A stretch of DNA of 20,791 bases. It comes from a virus. Its lineage: Duplodnaviria; Heunggongvirae; Uroviricota; Caudoviricetes. The notes under the pieces were generated by a model that was not told the origin of the DNA, did not search any database, and saw only the letters and a program-made list of their open reading frames with translations. Below, piece after piece: positions 3,143-15,151 of this stretch. A program made the translations under genes and the position numbers. Numbering within the stretch: the first letter of the stretch is position 1; the number at the start of each line of letters is the position of its first letter. The stretch lies in the IMG/VR virus record IMGVR_UViG_2563366825_000026, positions 1 to 20,791 of that record; one strand, 5' to 3'.

Positions 3143-5125
3143 TTATGCTGATTCCCGGTTTTCGTTAACTTTGACTGTGACCGTATCAAGCAGTACCGGA
3201 TACGTCGCTTTTGCCCCCGTGATATCTGTCAGCGTCAGCGTATCTGCTGTAAAGCCATCATTTGTCCACATCACCAGGTCAAACGCAGACTGCTCTGCAT
3301 CATCAATCACCGGCACCACTTTTTCGCTGTTATTTCCCGCAAAGCGGAAAACAACTGTATGCCAGTTATGGTCAAATGCCCCAAATGTGCCCAGTTGCGC
3401 ATTCGACTCCCCCTTGTGGTACATCAGATTCAGATTTGATGCATCCGTCTGAAGGAAGAAGGACGCCAGCATGCTGTTTGCTGTCGCGCCTGACGCCCAC
3501 TGCGACACCGGCCAGTACAGACCAAAGACAAACTGACCGTTAACCAGTTCGACACCCTCCGGGATCTTAAACCGCACGGCAATTTCACCTCCCTTACTGA
3601 GAAGATTTTTTGCCTCCTCCACCGCAACAGTACGGAACATCTTCCAGGAGGTCAGTTTACCCGGCTGTTTTTCCAGTCGCAGCGCCTTCCTGCCACTGTC
3701 ATCCGTCACAGTGCCTTTACCACCGGACGCATTCCACTGCTGCTCTGTCCATACACCACTGCCACTGTTCGCATCATATCCGGCCACCATTCTTGTTACG
3801 GCTTCAGTATGACCGCCTGCAGAAATACCTGCACCCTGCTGTTGCGTCGGACCCGCAGAGCCAGACTGTGCATCCCCCGTGGAGGCTGGCGTGGTCGCCA
3901 GCGGTGCAGACTGCCCGCTCAGGAACGGCAGCAAACGCCCGGCTCGCACCAGTATCTCTCCTGCCAGCCGATCTGAAACAATGCCTCTTCGCGCCCAGGA
4001 GCTGAAGTGCGTTTTACGAGCGGCTGTCGTCCAGTTACCATTACTGCGTGACGCGGCACCATAGTATCCCGCCGTGATAATGTCCGGATCTTCTGACGGC
4101 TCGTTTGTCGGCACATTCGCACCATGCTCATCCGTCATCAACGGCACAAAGTGAATATTCTGCGCCGCCTTGCCTTTATAGCCTCCGTAAACCGCCTCAT
4201 ACTGCACTGCATACTTCGCCTTCCAGTCGTACGTGGTGTCACCGCAAATCCACGGGACGCCGGACGTTGTCCCGCCAATACACTGGTCTGCAATATCTGC
4301 CAGGTCTGCACGGTATTTATTTACCATGGCAAGAAAAAGTGCATTGTGCTCTGCATGTCTCCCCGAACTGACATCTTTTTCCCCCTGCATCCAGATCACC
4401 GACAACAGCACGTTTTTCGGATTTTTCTTCAGGGCTGCACGCGTTCTGCTGACCAGGTCACGATACAACGGTTTATCCACCCCCCACAGGGAAGAGCCCG
4501 CTGTCGCACCCGACGCCTCATTAAACGCGCCCTCTGCTCCCGCAGTAAATCCCGAATCGCCACGTCCACACGGGACAAGAAGGATCCCCGCACGGGCAGG
4601 CATAAACGGCAGCAGTTTTTTGGCCACATGCAGGGCATGCCCCACACAGCCATACTGCCCTTTATTGAGGTCTGCTTTCGGGTGATTCAGATTACTCACG
4701 TCCTGCACATCATGCAGACAATGGTCTGCAGGAATAATGTCGTTATATGCACAGGCCGCACCGCCCGGTGTCACCGTGCTGCGACGCGCCAGTTGCTTAA
4801 TACGCGGGTCAGGACGATCATACGTATCCGGCAGCGGCAGCCCCTCGCCAAAAGACATCGAGTTGGACTGCCCGGCCAGCGCAATGACAAAGTAATATTC
4901 CGGTTCGCTGGTGGTGCTGATAACAGCGCCACCATCACCCGACGGTTGCACCACCACCGGTGTGGTGACATCACCTTCCGCCGCAATGGCCTGCATCAGG
5001 GTATAGGGCGTGATGGCGACAGGGCTGCCAAATGGCTGCCACCCCTCCTTCAGTTTTTGAGTCAGTCGCTCCGCAAGGTCTGACGGCGACGCCGCCCTGA
5101 CCACGTCATAGTGTTTAAATGTCAT
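3143..5125 (-). CDS. nanS: prophage-encoded sialate O-acetylesterase, NanS-p-like (N-terminal DUF1737-like region + SASA/SGNH esterase domain + C-terminal domain)
   Basis: 660 aa; ATG at 5125 with GGGAGG upstream. The FVIALAGQSNSMSFGEG block is the esterase-type GQSN motif. Size and architecture match the NanS-p proteins found just upstream of the lysis genes in Stx-type lambdoid prophages. Confidence 0.8.
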   Translation of the reverse strand: MTFKHYDVVRAASPSDLAERLTQKLKEGWQPFGSPVAITPYTLMQAIAAEGDVTTPVVVQPSGDGGAVISTTSEPEYYFVIALAGQSNSMSFGEGLPLPDTYDRPDPRIKQLARRSTVTPGGAACAYNDIIPADHCLHDVQDVSNLNHPKADLNKGQYGCVGHALHVAKKLLPFMPARAGILLVPCGRGDSGFTAGAEGAFNEASGATAGSSLWGVDKPLYRDLVSRTRAALKKNPKNVLLSVIWMQGEKDVSSGRHAEHNALFLAMVNKYRADLADIADQCIGGTTSGVPWICGDTTYDWKAKYAVQYEAVYGGYKGKAAQNIHFVPLMTDEHGANVPTNEPSEDPDIITAGYYGAASRSNGNWTTAARKTHFSSWARRGIVSDRLAGEILVRAGRLLPFLSGQSAPLATTPASTGDAQSGSAGPTQQQGAGISAGGHTEAVTRMVAGYDANSGSGVWTEQQWNASGGKGTVTDDSGRKALRLEKQPGKLTSWKMFRTVAVEEAKNLLSKGGEIAVRFKIPEGVELVNGQFVFGLYWPVSQWASGATANSMLASFFLQTDASNLNLMYHKGESNAQLGTFGAFDHNWHTVVFRFAGNNSEKVVPVIDDAEQSAFDLVMWTNDGFTADTLTLTDITGAKATYPVLLDTVTVKVNENRESA

Positions 5126-5319
5126 GAATCCTCCCGGTCGGGATAATGTTGTGAGTCAGATGAGGGAACGGGCTGAAGTCCGGAAGTTACAGGACAATGG
5201 CAGGAGGAAGACTACAGCCCGCAATACGAAAAAGGCCGCGCTATTGCGCAGAGTGATTACTGTCGGATATTATTCGCCAGCTGAAATATTACTTCACGTT
5301 TTGTTGTTTATTCCTTGCC

Positions 5320-5348
5320 GCCCGCGTCTCCCAGCGCGGGCTTTTTTT
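5320..5348 (+). terminator. intrinsic-terminator-like hairpin, plus-strand oriented
   Basis: Stem GCCCGCG (5320-5326) / CGCGGGC (5335-5341), then TTTTTTT (5342-5348). A second GC hairpin AGCCCCTC/GAGGGGCT lies at 5360-5379. Confidence 0.45.
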
Positions 5349-5696
5349 GTCCATAAGAAAGCCCCTCCGGAGAGGGGCTGGAGAGTGGCGCTATGTGCCA
5401 TTGCATGGTGCCGGGTGCCTCCCGGTGAGTTCAGTATCAGCACCTGAACCCGCACAGAAAGGATAAGGGTCGGTGACAAAACACCAGTTGCTGATTGCCC
5501 CTCCGCACAGGGGGATTCACCATGCCAGTTTCTTTTAACAAACTCCCCGCAAACCAGACAACAGTCAACCGCCTGAATTGTGAGGTATTTAAAAATTTCA
5601 ACGGGTAACTGATACCCTGCTAATCGCCTGATGCTTTCTTTTTCAGCAACGGGGAAGCAACAACCACCACACCCACCAGCCGCCCATTTACCACAA

Positions 5697-5722
5697 ATAA
5701 AAAAGCCTTCACTGCGGAAGGC
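5697..5722 (-). terminator. intrinsic terminator downstream of the small HTH-like gene
   Basis: Stem GCCTTC (5705-5710) / GAAGGC (5717-5722); on the minus strand it is followed by UUUUUU (complement of 5699-5704). Overlaps the gene's stop codon. Confidence 0.5.
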
Positions 5723-5906
5723 GTCTGTAACAACCGAACTGATAGTCTGCCAGACCCGCCATAACCAGCTGGGTCAGTATTAACTGGCAGCGTTCGCGTG
5801 AAAGGTAAGTATTCTGCGCAATCTCCCCGACTGTCGCCGGGTAGGTGACGCTTAATTCATTAAACACCACTCTGGCGGTTTCTGTCATATCCTGCTGTTT
5901 TAGCAT
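5709..5906 (-). CDS. small putative helix-turn-helix protein (65 aa)
   Basis: ATG at 5906 with GGGAAA-type SD. The TVGEIAQNTYLSRERCQLILTQLVMAGL block looks like an HTH. Bracketed by the tR'-like terminator upstream and its own terminator downstream. The track's longer version (to 5996) would run into the terminator region. Confidence 0.45.
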   Translation of the reverse strand: MLKQQDMTETARVVFNELSVTYPATVGEIAQNTYLSRERCQLILTQLVMAGLADYQFGCYRRLPQ

Positions 5907-6023
5907 GTCTTTTTCCCTTTTCCGGTTAACGTGACATACCAATAACTCTTGTCTAAAAAGCCAGCAAGCTGAAAGACAGGTATTCACCACCAGCACGTTT
6001 ACTGTACTGATGCGATTTCAGTC

Positions 6024-6112
6024 ATAAAAAACCCGCCAGGCGGCGGGTTTAAGTTGTGTGGCGTAGTAACCACTCTTAACATACTGACATACTTTTTGCG
6101 GACCGCGCTAAT
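6024..6112 (-). promoter_or_regulatory. late-promoter region: putative PR'-like promoter and qut region followed by a tR'-like intrinsic terminator
   Basis: Just downstream of the Q-like stop on the minus strand: stem CCCGCC/GGCGGG (6032-6047) followed by UUUUUUAU. About 35-60 nt upstream lie an A-rich tract and weak sigma70-like hexamers (TGATTA - 17 - TATGTC). Geometry matches the lambda PR'/6S RNA/tR' arrangement; the exact hexamers are uncertain. Confidence 0.5.
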
Positions 6113-6500
6113 CATTTTTTACTTTTTTGGGCAGCCAGTCGTCCATCTCCAGCCTTACACCCAGCATCGACAGACATCCGTCAATAAATCCTTCAGCAAT
6201 CTGCATCTCAATTCGTATTGCCTTTTCGCTCTTCTTTCTTGTTCTGGCAATCTGCCTTTTTGATATGCGCAGCAGATAATGAGCTACCAGCAGCGAATAC
6301 TCGTCCGGTTTTTTCTTCTTCAGGCGCGTAAGGCAGTTTTCGATGATAAGGCCGTCATCATCGCTGCAGGCCGGGCGAGGTTTAGCGGTGGATGGTAAAA
6401 GGCCTTTAAATCCAGCAGCTATCGGAGAATAGTCCACCCCGGTGTTACCACTTGCCGCCCATGCCCCCCAGCGTTCAAGAACCATCTGAATATCACGCAT
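6108..6500 (-). CDS. Q: late-gene antitermination protein Q-like (short Q family, about 130 aa)
   Basis: ATG at 6500 with GGAGA 6 nt upstream (the track ORF starts at a TTG at 6515). Position is diagnostic: last gene before the tR'-like terminator and the late genes, directly after the nin-region genes. Family identity is from memory of short Q proteins and is unverified. Confidence 0.6.
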   Translation of the reverse strand: MRDIQMVLERWGAWAASGNTGVDYSPIAAGFKGLLPSTAKPRPACSDDDGLIIENCLTRLKKKKPDEYSLLVAHYLLRISKRQIARTRKKSEKAIRIEMQIAEGFIDGCLSMLGVRLEMDDWLPKKVKND

Positions 6501-11170: not shown

Positions 11171-11391
11171 GCAGCACCTCCGAGATGCTTCATGTTTTTT
11201 CCGGAGCGAAAGGCTATAAGCGGCATACTGACGCGGTAATTACGGCCCAGCGGTTCACAAATCACCTTCTGACATTCACGGTCAACCAGGCTAACACGTA
11301 GAACATGCCCTGCAGGCGTGGTGTACCACTGACCCGGACGAGGACAACGGAAAGTATGATTGGTAAACCGTTTGAAAATATTCCGGATCAT
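11167..11391 (-). CDS. hypothetical protein (74 aa)
   Basis: ATG overlaps the Rha-protein stop (ATGA) and its stop overlaps the O-like start (ATGA), so it is translationally coupled on both sides. No family recognised. Confidence 0.4.
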   Translation of the reverse strand: MIRNIFKRFTNHTFRCPRPGQWYTTPAGHVLRVSLVDRECQKVICEPLGRNYRVSMPLIAFRSGKNMKHLGGAA

Positions 11392-12539
11392 TTGCGCCCC
11401 CTTACCTCTGAAGGGTTCAGCGACAAATTTATGAGACTGGCCAGTAGCGCCGCGTCGTTGATGCGGTCATACAGACTTACAGCCAGCGGGGATTCGGCTT
11501 TTGCCAACATGGGATAAAGCTGCTGCAGCCAGACCTGATGAATTGATGAAATGTAGGAATAGAGAACGCTGGCGTTATATGCAACGTCGCTCAGTACAGA
11601 GGGATTTGAAAGCTGTTTCTCCATCTGGTTAAAGGCATTGATGTATGCCTCTTTGAACCGGGCAGCACGTTTACCCGTGAAGCCCATGGCAAGAAACGCA
11701 AAACCGTCGCGGGTGATTTGGTAACAAGGGAGTTTGCGGCCTGATGCGTCGGTGTATTCACTTAACACAAAATTGTGTTCAGTAAATTCAGCGGAACATT
11801 CGAGGTTTCTAATTCTATCTAAAACCCGCTCATGCCGTTTAGTAAAGTAATTAGCTACTGCAAGAGATGTGGTGACAACGCGACCATTGATAATCGTGAT
11901 TTCAGGGTGAGATTGGGTTGGGAGAGTAGTCATGGTGACAGCCCCTATGTTGAATTCAATGAACTCACCACCAAGGCTTTCCACGACCATATAGGTGGTG
12001 AGACGTACAGGGGTGGAAATACCGGTCAACATAGAACCCGGCCCAACCGAAGTTGGCCCTGCACGCCCCACCATAATTTGGGCGTAACGATGCTCATGAC
12101 ACGAAAAAACCGCATGAGCGCGGTTGTGCTCTATATTGAATTTCGGGTTTCCACGCCCGGCACCCGCTTTATAAGGTGCCTGAACAGTGTAACGTCCCGG
12201 AATTGCAGAATCAATATGCTGGTGGTCCTTCACACTCAACAAAATCACGCCTGAATTTCCACAAAGGACTAAAGCACTCATGCGGGTAGTCTTTGCGAAG
12301 ATAGATAACGCGCTGTGTTTCTGGCTCCCAACGAATAACATGGACATAAAGCCCTCTTCCGTCACGAAACCAGCGGTTAAGTTCCTGCACAACTCGCCCC
12401 CCACAGTCAGGTAAAGTTCTCTGTGGTTACTTACAGCCAGGTGATTTGGTAATCTGCATTCATGCCGTAACAACAGGTGTTCAGCGACGCTGACCACCAG
12501 CTGTTGCGACAAACGGTTATTTGCCGTTAAACTATTCAT
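11388..12539 (-). CDS. Rha-domain phage regulatory protein with an N-terminal extension of about 200 aa of unknown function
   Basis: Residues from about 203 (MTTLPTQSHPEITIINGRVVTTSLAVANYFTKRHERVLDRIRNLECSAEF...DGFAFLAMGFTGKRAARFKEAYINAFNQME) match the Rha domain, which is usually N-terminal. An internal ATG at 11933 with an AGGGG SD could give a 181-aa Rha-only product. The 12539 ATG overlaps the upstream stop (ATGA), supporting the long form. Confidence 0.6.
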   Translation of the reverse strand: MNSLTANNRLSQQLVVSVAEHLLLRHECRLPNHLAVSNHRELYLTVGGELCRNLTAGFVTEEGFMSMLFVGSQKHSALSIFAKTTRMSALVLCGNSGVILLSVKDHQHIDSAIPGRYTVQAPYKAGAGRGNPKFNIEHNRAHAVFSCHEHRYAQIMVGRAGPTSVGPGSMLTGISTPVRLTTYMVVESLGGEFIEFNIGAVTMTTLPTQSHPEITIINGRVVTTSLAVANYFTKRHERVLDRIRNLECSAEFTEHNFVLSEYTDASGRKLPCYQITRDGFAFLAMGFTGKRAARFKEAYINAFNQMEKQLSNPSVLSDVAYNASVLYSYISSIHQVWLQQLYPMLAKAESPLAVSLYDRINDAALLASLINLSLNPSEVRGRK

Positions 12540-13427: not shown

Positions 13428-14102
13428 ATGAAAACAGTCCATGACATCCGGCGGTCTAACGCCAGAAAACTGAGAGATGGTGTTGGCGGGAATTCTTCCT
13501 TTGCCACCATGATTGATCGCGAGCCAACCCAGACCAGCAGGTTTATGGGAGATGGTGCTACTAAAAATATCGGTGACAGCATGGCACGGCACATCGAAAA
13601 ATGTTTCGACCTGCCTGTCGGATGGCTTGATCAAGAACACCAGACAACAAACATCACAAAAAAACCTGATGTTTCAATTACTAACAAACAAATAACGTTA
13701 GTCCCTGTCATATCATGGGTACAGGCCGGAGCATGGAAAGAAGTTGGCTATTCTGAGGTTGATTTGAGCACAGCAGAAACTTATCCCTGCCCTGTACCCT
13801 GTGGCGAAATGACTTATATCTTGCGGGTGATTGGTGATTCAATGATTGATGAGTACCGCCCGGGAGACATGATTTTTGTAGATCCTGAAGTCCCTGCCTG
13901 CCACGGTGACGACGTTATTGCATTGATGCACGATACAGGCGAAACCACCTTTAAGCGGTTGATAGAAGATGGAACACAGCGTTACCTCAAAGCATTAAAC
14001 CCAAACTGGCCTGAACCTTACATTAAGATCAACGGTAATTGCTCTATAATTGGCACAGTAATTTTCTCAGGAAAACCAAGAAGATACAAAATAAAGGCCT
14101 AA
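13428..14102 (+). CDS. cI: CI-like prophage repressor with N-terminal HTH and C-terminal LexA-like S24 peptidase (autocleavage) domain
   Basis: 224 aa. XRE-like HTH (SFATMIDREPTQTSRFMG) and C-terminal VIGDSMIDEY...TFKRL Ser/Lys dyad typical of LexA/cI-type self-cleaving repressors. Followed by a strong terminator. Confidence 0.85.
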   Translation: MKTVHDIRRSNARKLRDGVGGNSSFATMIDREPTQTSRFMGDGATKNIGDSMARHIEKCFDLPVGWLDQEHQTTNITKKPDVSITNKQITLVPVISWVQAGAWKEVGYSEVDLSTAETYPCPVPCGEMTYILRVIGDSMIDEYRPGDMIFVDPEVPACHGDDVIALMHDTGETTFKRLIEDGTQRYLKALNPNWPEPYIKINGNCSIIGTVIFSGKPRRYKIKA

Positions 14103-14113
14103 TCAATATTTAT

Positions 14114-14137
14114 AACCTGCTTCGGCAGGTTTTTTTA
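14114..14137 (+). terminator. intrinsic terminator after the repressor gene
   Basis: Stem AACCTGC (14114-14120), loop TTCG, stem GCAGGTT (14125-14131), then a T-run (14131-14137). Confidence 0.7.
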
Positions 14138-14140
14138 TAC

Positions 14141-14169
14141 TTGACAATGTACCCTTGAGATACATAATG
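14141..14169 (+). promoter_or_regulatory. PL-like early-left promoter with overlapping operator
   Basis: TTGACA (14141-14146) - 16 nt - CATAAT (14163-14168). The spacer carries ATGTACCCTTGAGATACAT (14147-14165), the same ATGTAC-N7-TACAT palindrome type as the operators next to cro. Confidence 0.6.
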
Positions 14170-14582
14170 TATCTAAAAGAAACATGTCACAGGCAAGATT
14201 AAACAAAATTTGGTTGTAACACGGCGTATGGCACATGCGTCGTTAGCGGTCTGGGGACGTTAAAGGGGACAATCCACTCCTTGCTCGGGCAAACAAACCA
14301 GGTAGCCGGAATGTGCAAGTCAATGAGGATGCTGATAAGACGCCTAACCAGCGTGGCGATTCGGTTTGACGCCTGGGAAGAGACCAGGACGCAACGATGA
14401 GAGCATTTATGGAGCCGCGACAAAGTGTGGTGCCGTAACTGGCTAAGTGCTCTCAGCGTTGTGGTGAATGCGCAGGCTGATGCGCGAAAGACATTGCAGC
14501 TATTGCGGAAAAGAGCTGTTCGGCGGGGCAATTAAACGCCCGTGAGAGTCTGAAATAACCGCAAGCCGGAGATCAGCACCGG

Positions 14583-14651
14583 TCACCACAACAGCCACTG
14601 CTTTGGCGGTACCAGTTTGTACACTTGCTTCCGGCTGGTACCGCTCTTTTT
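14583..14651 (+). ncRNA. candidate DicF-like small RNA 3' element / intrinsic terminator at the end of an ORF-free PL leader
   Basis: Perfect 10-bp stem GCGGTACCAG (14606-14615) / CTGGTACCGC (14635-14644), 19-nt loop, then TCTTTTT. The 5' arm with flank (GGTCAC...TTTGGCGGTACCAGTTTGTAC) resembles my memory of E. coli DicF (GGTGACGTTTGGCGGTATCAGTTTTAC). Identity unverified. Confidence 0.35.
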
Positions 14652-14652
14652 A

Positions 14653-14739
14653 CAAAACAGAGAAGAGCATCACCGGACGACGGGCTCATAACCCAATCCA
14701 TCCGGGCGGCTGCCACCGCAGGTGTTCTTCTCTGTTTTG
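14653..14739. repeat. 14-bp perfect inverted repeat flanking a 59-bp GC-rich core
   Basis: CAAAACAGAGAAGA (14653-14666) and its exact reverse complement TCTTCTCTGTTTTG (14726-14739); inner hairpin CCGGA...TCCGG. Lies between the terminator and the first early-left gene. Confidence 0.55.
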
Positions 14740-14788
14740 TGGAGAAACCAACCGACCTTGCAGGGTCGATATGATGAGGAGCAGCAAA

Positions 14789-15151
14789 ATGGCTAGCGTA
14801 CGCAGTACTGATGTGCAGGTATTTATCGTAGAACTGGACGGCGGCGTATTTGAAACCAAACTCGGCGCAGTTCTCAGTGAAGTCGCTTCCGGTGTGATGA
14901 ACACGAAAAACAAAGGTAAAGTCTCGGTCAATCTGGACATCGAACCGTTTGATGAGAACCGTGTGAAAATCAAACACAAACTCTCATATGTTCGCCCGAC
15001 TAACCGCGGGAAAATTTCCGAAGAAGACACCACCGAAACGCCGATGTATGTCAATCGAGGTGGTCGCCTGACTATTCTGCAGGAAGACCAGGGACAATTA
15101 CTAACTCTTGCCGGTGAACCTGACGGAAAACTCCGCGCAGCAGGTCATTAA
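14789..15151 (+). CDS. hypothetical early-left protein (120 aa); yfdP-like by position and length
   Basis: ATG at 14789 with GAGGAG 7 nt upstream; MASVRSTDVQVFIVELDGGVFETKLGAVLSEV... First gene after the PL leader. The track's longer version (from 14603) runs through the hairpin region. Confidence 0.6.
   Translation: MASVRSTDVQVFIVELDGGVFETKLGAVLSEVASGVMNTKNKGKVSVNLDIEPFDENRVKIKHKLSYVRPTNRGKISEEDTTETPMYVNRGGRLTILQEDQGQLLTLAGEPDGKLRAAGH

Follow-up and report, generated by a model that had tools for sequence, protein, structure and literature searches.

The window analyzed here, the whole 20,791-nt stretch at positions 1 to 20,791 of the IMG/VR virus record IMGVR_UViG_2563366825_000026, is a lambdoid prophage of the SfV/mEp460/cdtI type. 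Between its PL-like promoter and yfdP, the first protein-coding gene of the early-left operon, lies an untranslated stretch of ~610 nt (from ~14175 to yfdP at 14789) occupied by a succession of structured elements: a 176-nt RNA that we call module A, a long spacer hairpin (S1), a 136-nt cloverleaf-like RNA (module B), a terminator hairpin (T), and a second long hairpin (S2). We are confident of this architecture and of its homology to the precursor of the small RNA DicF in the Qin prophage. We hold much less firmly to a function for it, although on balance we lean toward a reading in which the stretch is a processed polycistronic noncoding RNA precursor, assembled from exchangeable cassettes and closed by a leaky terminator, whose cassettes act in trans. 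In a 99% identical prophage, roughly 690 nt from the repressor gene to yfdP carry no annotation by RefSeq/PGAP. An initial annotation of this DNA had described an open reading frame (ORF)-free leader of ~440 nt, which underestimates its length and omits the second large structure past the terminator.

Diverse copies of the leader pieces were gathered by pattern scans of viral and genome collections, and the alignment for module A comprises 27 sequences (E. coli, Klebsiella, Citrobacter, Kosakonia, Kluyvera, Erwinia, Buttiauxella, and others). Across it, compensatory change maintains five helices, of which one is a pseudoknot; of all cells, 97.9% pair, and both partners have changed in 11 pairs (72 cells). 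None of 500 shuffles matched this pairing and covariation, and slid partners gave 29–50% paired. The exchanges run through H1 (column pair 18:30 is G-C in 17 sequences and A-U in 9), H2 (pair 44:96 is C-G in 14 sequences and U-A in 13), H4 (GGGAU/AUCCC, GCGAU/AUCGC, ACGC/GCGU, and UUGAU/AUCAA), the pseudoknot (CACC:GGUG in 22 sequences, AACC:GGUU in 5), and H5 (CCUCG/CGAGG, CCUGG/CCAGG, and GCCGG/CCGGC), and the strings UAGCGGUC, GGUAGCCGGAAUGUGCAAG, and UGGCGAUNCGGUGUGAC between the helices are invariant. Many of the pairs are G-U on the plus strand, for example at columns 16:32, 19:29, 41:99, and 42:98, and would be C-A mismatches on the other strand, which indicates that the folded molecule is the plus-sense transcript. 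With the covariance model R1, the window copy reaches 150.7 bits (E = 1e-40), and R1 has no other match in the window. RNAalifold also proposed a long-range pairing, GGCACAU:AUGUGC, which we did not adopt because it involves only invariant columns, whereas the local H1 has compensatory support; it may be a tertiary or alternative contact of the module.

The distribution of module A is broad. By BLAST, copies occur in P1, in phiV10-type/epsilon15-like podoviruses, and in otherwise unrelated phages, always in unannotated DNA and often beside transfer RNA (tRNA) genes; in P1 the module lies directly 3′ of tRNA-Ile and 5′ of ban, and in the phiV10-type podoviruses directly 5′ of tRNA-Arg. It is present in 23 species genomes of Enterobacterales, in 1375 of the 5426 complete E. 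coli genomes, where its annotation is “none” throughout, and in 593 plasmids, most of them similar in size to P1-like phage-plasmids (about 90–100 kb). A scan of Qin with R1 found no module A. In P1 (locus L004, ~1690–1705), the string TTTTCTGGTGATGAC stands directly after module A, before ban, and resembles the DicF 5′ segment TTTCTGGTGACG, which T of the window lacks. A further conserved noncoding element, ATCAGCCAATCACGCTAAGCATC...GGGACTGGAAGAGTTACCACTTGGAGACGGTCC, follows module A in mEp390 (L223, ~1345–1450) and in L226 and L228 (Kosakonia, Phytobacter), and is absent from the window.

Module B is closed by the stem GUUGUGGUG/CACCACAAC, within which a 5′ hairpin (GCGCA-GGCUGA-UGCGC) is followed by a long central arm and then by a 3′ hairpin, GCCGG-AGAUCAGCA-CCGGU, that sits directly against the closing stem's 3′ strand, in the manner of a tRNA T arm. 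The junction and three helices are supported by both fold and covariation. In at least 10 variants the scaffold is nearly constant and the central 50–150 nt are unrelated, so that the module has a hypervariable core; pairing in the scaffold itself reaches 97.9%, and 7 of its pairs have changed at both positions (0/500 shuffles). Compensatory changes include GUGGUGA/UCACCAC to GUGAUGA/UCAUCAC in P1, GCGC/GCGC to GCCC/GGGC, and GCCGG/CCGGC to GCUGG/CCAGC or GUCGG/CCGAC. The loops of the two hairpins are complementary (GCUGAU:AUCAGC), with only wobble-compatible changes, and we suggest that a pairing between them may mimic the tRNA elbow. A tRNA proper was rejected, as ARAGORN found 0 tRNAs in the window and the Rfam tRNA family (RF00005) gave no match there; both the T-loop consensus and the 3′ CCA are absent from the module. 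We also considered an HNH pseudogene, given the CxxC-like strings CSQRCGEC and CSYCGKEL, and set it aside because these lie in different, stop-interrupted frames; the RNA-type covariation and the hypervariable core likewise disfavor it. Elsewhere, the module B element follows tRNA-Asn/tRNA-Thr in P1 and sits in intergenic DNA of Klebsiella siphophages. A cassette between two S hairpins in SPN1S (L222, ~1345–1420) and in L037 has two T-arm-like hairpins, CTGGTTCAATTCCAG and GTCCGTTCGATTCGGAC, and is not a tRNA by ARAGORN-style logic or Rfam, and cassettes in L235 and L227 carry canonical GGTTCGAnTCC T arms. The cassette family thus grades into tRNA-like sequences.

The modules are punctuated by long hairpins. 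S1 (minimum free energy, MFE, of −37.2 kcal/mol, z = −4.45; a stack of 7+9+6+6 pairs) belongs to a CAAC...GUUG family with dozens of variants, whose stems are kept by compensating changes (GAUGAGAGCA/UGCUCUCAGC, GGUAAGAGCA/UGCUCUUACC, AUGAAAGCGCA/UGCGCUUCCAG, and GUUGAGAACA/UGUUCUCAAC). In other phages, hairpins of this type separate each element of the array, true tRNAs included, and sometimes also stand 5′ of module A; the cassette boundaries coincide with their CAAC/GUUG bases. S2 begins within the U-tract of T and ends 47 nt before yfdP. Its MFE is −47.8 kcal/mol (z = −6.6), none of 200 shuffles folded as well, and it is kept with compensating stem variants in other genera (Kosakonia, Phytobacter, and others; ACGCAACACACAAGAGCA ... 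UGCUCUUUUGUGUUGUGU). Both S1 and S2 offer at least about 20 bp of nearly continuous double-stranded RNA, the structure of an RNase III hairpin, and from this fold S2 is probably an RNase III site at which read-through transcripts would be processed.

T has a perfect 10-bp stem, GCGGTACCAG/CTGGTACCGC, with 7 G-C pairs (13 bp when G-U pairs are counted), followed by TCTTTTT, as in an intrinsic terminator and just as the initial annotation had described it; the hairpin folds at −21.2 kcal/mol (z = −3.5 against shuffles). A simple terminator scan missed it because its loop, at 15–19 nt, is atypically long. The same annotation had noted a resemblance to DicF, and for the hairpin this proved to be homology. 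On the 5′ arm, the 17-mer TTTGGCGGTACCAGTTT agrees with K-12 dicF (TTTGGCGGTATCAGTTT) at 16 of 17 positions, and a local alignment to a 59-nt query (the annotated 53 nt of DicF plus 6 nt of 3′ flank) gives 39/55 identities over DicF nt 13–59, with a score of 43 against 15.9 ± 3.1 for shuffles (maximum 32). The resemblance covers the 3′ two-thirds of DicF and does not extend to the whole RNA, whose known activity is to regulate ftsZ and other mRNAs with the help of Hfq. The first 12 nt of DicF (UUUCUGGUGACG) have no counterpart in the window, where only ~9–15 unrelated nt separate module B from the stem of T, and the Rfam DicF model (RF00039) found no match at its gathering score (48 bits) nor even at E ≤ 10 in searches of 801 and 91 nt, although Qin, as a positive control, scored 76.7 bits. 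Judged by sequence, T is a relative of the DicF terminator hairpin but falls outside the DicF family of Rfam. The arrays of phiV10, SPN1S, Tyrion, mEp390, Kosakonia prophages, and Qin are closed by hairpins of one form, UUGGCGGY...RCCGCC-CUUUUUAC, whose inner stems covary. The 3′ arm and U-tract of T (window 14642–14655, CGCTCTTTTTACAA) also come near the lambda and rrn boxA (CGCUCUUA / UGCUCUUUAACAA); the boxA-like string within it, CGCUCUUUUUACAA, is not conserved across the T family, and we attribute it to chance.

The kinship with Qin extends beyond T. In Qin, ydfC is followed by an S hairpin (UAACgCGaAAGCGCA...UGCGCUUcCGGUUG), a cloverleaf-like cassette that we call C, and DicF, and the S-plus-C unit is 87% identical over 135 nt to the leader of phage Ayreon, in which C replaces module B. 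The orders S-C-DicF in Qin, S1-B-T in the window, and S-C-T in Ayreon put T where DicF stands, and both regions belong to the early-left operon of a lambdoid prophage, 3′ of a PL-equivalent promoter, with a long CAAC...GUUG hairpin leading to a cloverleaf-like cassette and then to a GGCGG...CCGCC hairpin with a U-tract. The two differ in that the window has no ydfABC and has module A, cassette B in place of C, a longer perfect stem in T, and S2 as a second long hairpin after it. The Qin precursor is known to be cut by RNase III, which yields a 190-nt DicF species, and by RNase E, which yields the 53-nt species, and read-through of the DicF terminator into dicB-ydfD gives a 1,608-nt transcript (PMC10448788). 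Counting back 190 nt from the DicF 3′ end would place the RNase III cut in the 3′ strand of the Qin S hairpin.

Comparison with sister phages that share the repressor, PL, T, S2, and yfdP with the window shows that the cassettes are exchanged as units. The window has a leader of type A-S-B, and Ayreon, which is otherwise colinear with it, and others have type A-S-C, with C exactly at the B position and T after it. A third type, in SfIV (L254, 1408–2690), L110 (about 5025–6160), and L064, consists of a hairpin and a perfect boxA, GCTCTTTAACAA (at 1548–1559 of L254), a small ORF of 68 amino acids (aa), an antisense insert, and then S-B or S-B′; B′ replaces B in SfIV, and T is of the window type in L110 and L064 and a variant in SfIV. 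The boxA module shares short words with module A (GUAGCCG ... GAUUCGUUAGC), and these leaders suggest antitermination by host Nus factors in phages that lack N. L238 has module A and the boxA module together, and in phiV10 a tRNA-Arg occupies the B position. Ten loci (L026 and 9 similar viral contigs) proceed from PL directly to B, ~8 nt after the transcription start, and on to T, S2, and yfdP, with neither module A, S1, nor boxA. Module A is therefore not obligatory for the early-left operon.

Table 1. Features of the leader and its immediate surroundings, in window coordinates
Feature	Position	Strand	Basis or detail
cI-like, LexA-like S24 repressor gene	13428-14102	+	followed by its terminator and PL
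Intrinsic terminator of the repressor gene, AACCTGCTTCGGCAGGTT then T run	14114..14131	+	terminator scan; annotated terminator in phage Ayreon
PL-like sigma-70 promoter	14141..14168	+	TTGACA 14141-14146 / 16 nt / CATAAT 14163-14168
Module A, 176-nt structured RNA	14219..14394	+	covariation, covariance model R1
Module A H1	14222-14242	+	CGGCGUAUG-GCA-CAUGCGUCG
Module A H2	14249-14253 with 14299-14303	+	encloses variable hairpin
Module A invariant GGTAGCCGGAATGTGCAAG	14301-14319	+	variable H3 comes next
Module A H4	14340-14343 with 14351-14354	+	
Module A pseudoknot	14346-14349 with 14363-14366	+	H4 loop joined to downstream strand
Module A H5	14372-14376 with 14384-14388	+	loop GAAGAGA
S1, long spacer hairpin, CGCAACGaUGAGAGCA ... 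UGCUCUCAgCGUUGUG	14390..14463	+	base CAAC...GUUG; RNase III substrate type
Module B, 136-nt cloverleaf-like RNA	14458..14593	+	MFE fold is a four-way junction
T, DicF-family terminator hairpin	14597..14651	+	short 5′ tail; stem 14606-14615 / 14635-14644; U-tract 14645-14651
S2, 22-bp uninterrupted stem enclosing two small hairpins	14650..14742	+	stem 14650-14671 with 14721-14742
yfdP, first protein-coding gene of the early-left operon	14789..15151	+	RefSeq annotation of 99% identical prophage; PHROG 204

These observations suggested to us the following scheme. Transcription from PL would produce module A, S1, module B, and T in that order. Most transcripts would probably end at T, giving the array a U-tailed hairpin at its 3′ end as in DicF, and a fraction would pass T into S2 and yfdP-xis-int, so that T would serve as an attenuator and not as a barrier that calls for an N-like factor. 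RNase III would open S1, and S2 on read-through transcripts, and RNase E would trim close to T in the way known for the dicF precursor, so that A, B, and a short RNA from T would be freed as individual stable molecules. Early in lytic growth, cassettes A and B would then act in trans, their targets being conserved components of the host, with module B perhaps a mimic of the top half of a tRNA. Action in trans is suggested by the exchange or absence of cassettes in sister phages, by the presence of module A in lambdoid siphoviruses, P1 myoviruses, and epsilon15-like podoviruses, which share few proteins, and by the long invariant unpaired segments of module A, which point to host factors. It had been argued in the initial annotation that expression of the genes beyond T would need a dedicated read-through mechanism. 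Such a substitute for N is not clearly required, because the homologous DicF terminator is read through into dicB-ydfD (PMC10448788) and because the ten PL-B-T loci keep T with neither A nor boxA upstream.

Several points weigh against this scheme. T is much stronger than the DicF hairpin (10–13 perfect pairs, −21 kcal/mol) and may leak less than the DicF terminator does, and the loop–loop contact and tRNA mimicry proposed for module B lack compensatory support. The trans-acting role and its host partner are things that we purely infer. In addition, module A lies ~7–55 nt from a promoter in at least six independent contexts, which fits a cis role on RNA polymerase: the distance is ~45–55 nt past the −10 element of PL in the window and in mEp390, it shrinks to 7 nt from the −10 in two Kosakonia prophages, and SPN1S-type phages have ~45 nt between strong promoters and the module.

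This last point leads to the alternative that module A is a cis-acting processive antiterminator like the put RNA of HK022, whose read-through of terminators in cis depends on the zinc-binding domain of the RNA polymerase β′ subunit. Module A would bind RNA polymerase as the folded transcript emerges, let it read through T, protect the long untranslated array from Rho, and replace the missing N. Like put of HK022 and HK639, module A is a structured RNA transcribed just past PL, upstream of terminators, in a lambdoid phage without N function; no N-like gene was found, and yfdP-int is served by no other promoter. The SfIV-type leaders place their hairpin and perfect rrn-type boxA (GCTCTTTAACAA) at the module A position after the same PL. 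Module A and stem I of put are also alike over a short stretch (CGGCG...CAUGCGUCG). In H1, the outer five pairs, CGGCG/CGUCG with G-U as the third, match C10-G14/C30-G34 of HK022 putL, the CAUG that precedes on the 3′ strand matches C26-G29, the polymerase-contacting bulge, and GGCGAUUCGGUGUGAC of module A resembles GGCGGGUUCAGGAUGAAC of put. The invariant unpaired segments, moreover, imply a conserved host partner. Nevertheless, we consider a put-like role unlikely. R1 gives nothing at E ≤ 10 in HK022 (L224) or HK639 (L225), blastn finds no similarity, and blastn-short of HK639 putL against the window returns chance words only. Module A has 176 nt and five helices including a pseudoknot, whereas put has ~70 nt and two stems, and the window has a single copy with no putR counterpart. 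The ten sister loci carry neither module A nor boxA, and the two co-occur in L238. In P1 the module lies mid-operon after a tRNA, in two Kosakonia loci it is directly followed by a convergent gene, and in phiV10, Erwinia, and Klebsiella types it is bracketed by S hairpins like an excised product. As for the boxA route itself, the SfIV-type sister leaders carry the perfect GCUCUUUAACAA of the rrn/lambda nut type after a hairpin, whereas the window has no such element other than the string in the 3′ arm and U-tract of T, and no N-like family accompanies it. In the HK639 record, an “M3-like RNA” of the right operon (37910–37969) is annotated besides a putL-like RNA; neither matches module A.

The remaining alternatives fare worse. 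That the structures act as DNA (in single-strand initiation, as recombination linkers, or as packaging signals), or that module A is a ligand-sensing riboswitch over the array, we regard as improbable. The CAAC...GUUG bases of the S hairpins at cassette boundaries could supply homology for cassette shuffling, but the strand-specific G-U pairs point to RNA, or at least to a fold of the plus strand only, and the elements are always co-oriented with neighboring tRNAs and promoters. Module A does look like an aptamer, combining within a 5′ leader covarying helices with invariant junctions and a pseudoknot; however, no expression platform (a terminator or a helix sequestering a ribosome-binding site) follows it, the first ORF is 400 nt away, and the downstream context differs in each phage type. 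Still less credible is the proposal of the initial annotation that the leader is a degenerate ydfABC-dicF-type operon whose sole functional product is a DicF-like small RNA, with the remainder as spacer. It draws on the synteny and homology of T and the S-plus-cassette unit with ydfC-dicF of Qin, but A, S1, B, and S2 are conserved with compensatory changes across genera and unrelated phage families, module A is absent from Qin and hence is no remnant of ydfABC, and T both lacks the 5′ segment of DicF and fails its model.

A protein-coding leader, for example one encoding a short N analogue, can be almost wholly discounted. Mechanical ORFs exist on the plus strand, of 39 aa (TTG start, 14281–14400) and 36 aa (GTG start, 14425–14535), so that the earlier statement that no plus frame exceeds 30 codons does not strictly hold, and the minus strand has one of 110 aa with a TTG start; hypothetical proteins are annotated here in some phage records. 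None of these frames is conserved. No reading frame stays open across the leader homologues, several of which have stops in all six frames, and their length differences are not multiples of three. Substitutions preserve base pairs, the ORFs have no Pfam or PHROG match, and PGAP discarded such calls. We rejected coding on these comparative grounds together with the lack of family matches. The absence of an N-like gene, noted in the initial annotation, was borne out, in that no N-like family was recognized among the nine early-left ORFs scanned, most of which are of unknown function.

The kinship of T with DicF and the fact that RNase III and RNase E process the Qin precursor were already known. 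Neither Rfam 15 nor searchable papers yielded a description of module A, of the B scaffold family, of S punctuation, or of DicF as the terminal unit of a widespread array, and the core strings of module A had no match in the text of open-access papers. A preprint on Pas small RNA is not obviously about these leader elements. Rfam searches of the whole window, the leader, and 20 related loci matched none of S, A, B, or C and recognized solely tRNAs, DicF (in Qin), C4, IsrK, STnc100, and int-alpA.

A parallel in general organization is the tRNA cluster of phage T4, in which stable RNAs of unknown function (species 1 and 2, rnaC/rnaD) are cotranscribed, interleaved with tRNA genes in one transcript, and freed by host RNases. 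As there, structured RNAs stand beside tRNAs, since modules A and B neighbor true tRNAs in P1 and phiV10. The two differ in host range and in the long RNase III-type hairpins that punctuate the array of the window.

The leader bears on several matters. Among the lambdoid prophages of Shigella and E. coli, many (SfV, mEp460, cdtI, and Stx2c types) lack a recognizable N, and their early-left expression awaits an explanation; it is this leader that occupies the place of N. It holds at least two conserved, covarying RNA structures absent from Rfam 15, of which A alone is carried by one in four complete E. coli genomes and also by phage-plasmids of the P1 type. Through the homology of its precursor, the long-studied DicF takes the terminal place in a broader family of modular noncoding RNA arrays of phages, and this view accounts for the RNase III and RNase E cut sites in its precursor. 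We also put forward, tentatively, that A and B are two undescribed classes of phage RNA that bind conserved host machinery of Enterobacterales. In the B family, a scaffold resembling the top half of a tRNA would display a hypervariable domain and serve as a decoy or guide in phage–host conflict, and A would be an RNA that modifies RNA polymerase or captures another host factor, with a fold unrelated to put. With true tRNAs and DicF-like small RNAs, they would form one widespread, RNase III-punctuated, cassette-shuffling system of noncoding RNA operons in lambdoid, P1-like, and epsilon15-like phages. That either module, or both, is a new functional class of RNA is likewise a possibility that we rate well below an even chance. 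Should A prove to modify RNA polymerase, antitermination by RNA alone would have a second example, unrelated in structure to the first, and should the cassettes prove to be decoys, they would be a new class of phage counter-defense or host-takeover RNAs.

The PL-like promoter, which the initial annotation had correctly pointed out, agrees with the sigma-70 consensus at 11/12 positions and sits just 3′ of the repressor gene and its terminator; transcription from it would start near 14175. It is annotated as a promoter in Ayreon, and the same PL heads the alternative leaders of SfIV and L110. A plus-strand scan from PL to 17587 found no second promoter-like site. The repressor gene faces three genes on the minus strand, one cro-like, one CII-like, and one for Rha/Ash. 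After yfdP come yfdQ, a 5′-deoxynucleotidase gene, several genes of unknown function, an excisionase gene, and an integrase gene from 19478 onward. In the K-12 prophage CPS-53, the DNA upstream of yfdP keeps just the final ~35 nt of the leader and has no annotated RNA. Elsewhere in the window, on the minus strand, Rfam recognizes STnc100 (5349–5554, 143.2 bits), C4 antisense RNA (11991–12078, 82.4 bits), and IsrK (12103–12179, 61.6 bits). The last two fall within a mechanical 383-aa Ash/Rha ORF (11388–12539, minus strand), so that the true start of this ORF is probably downstream of both.

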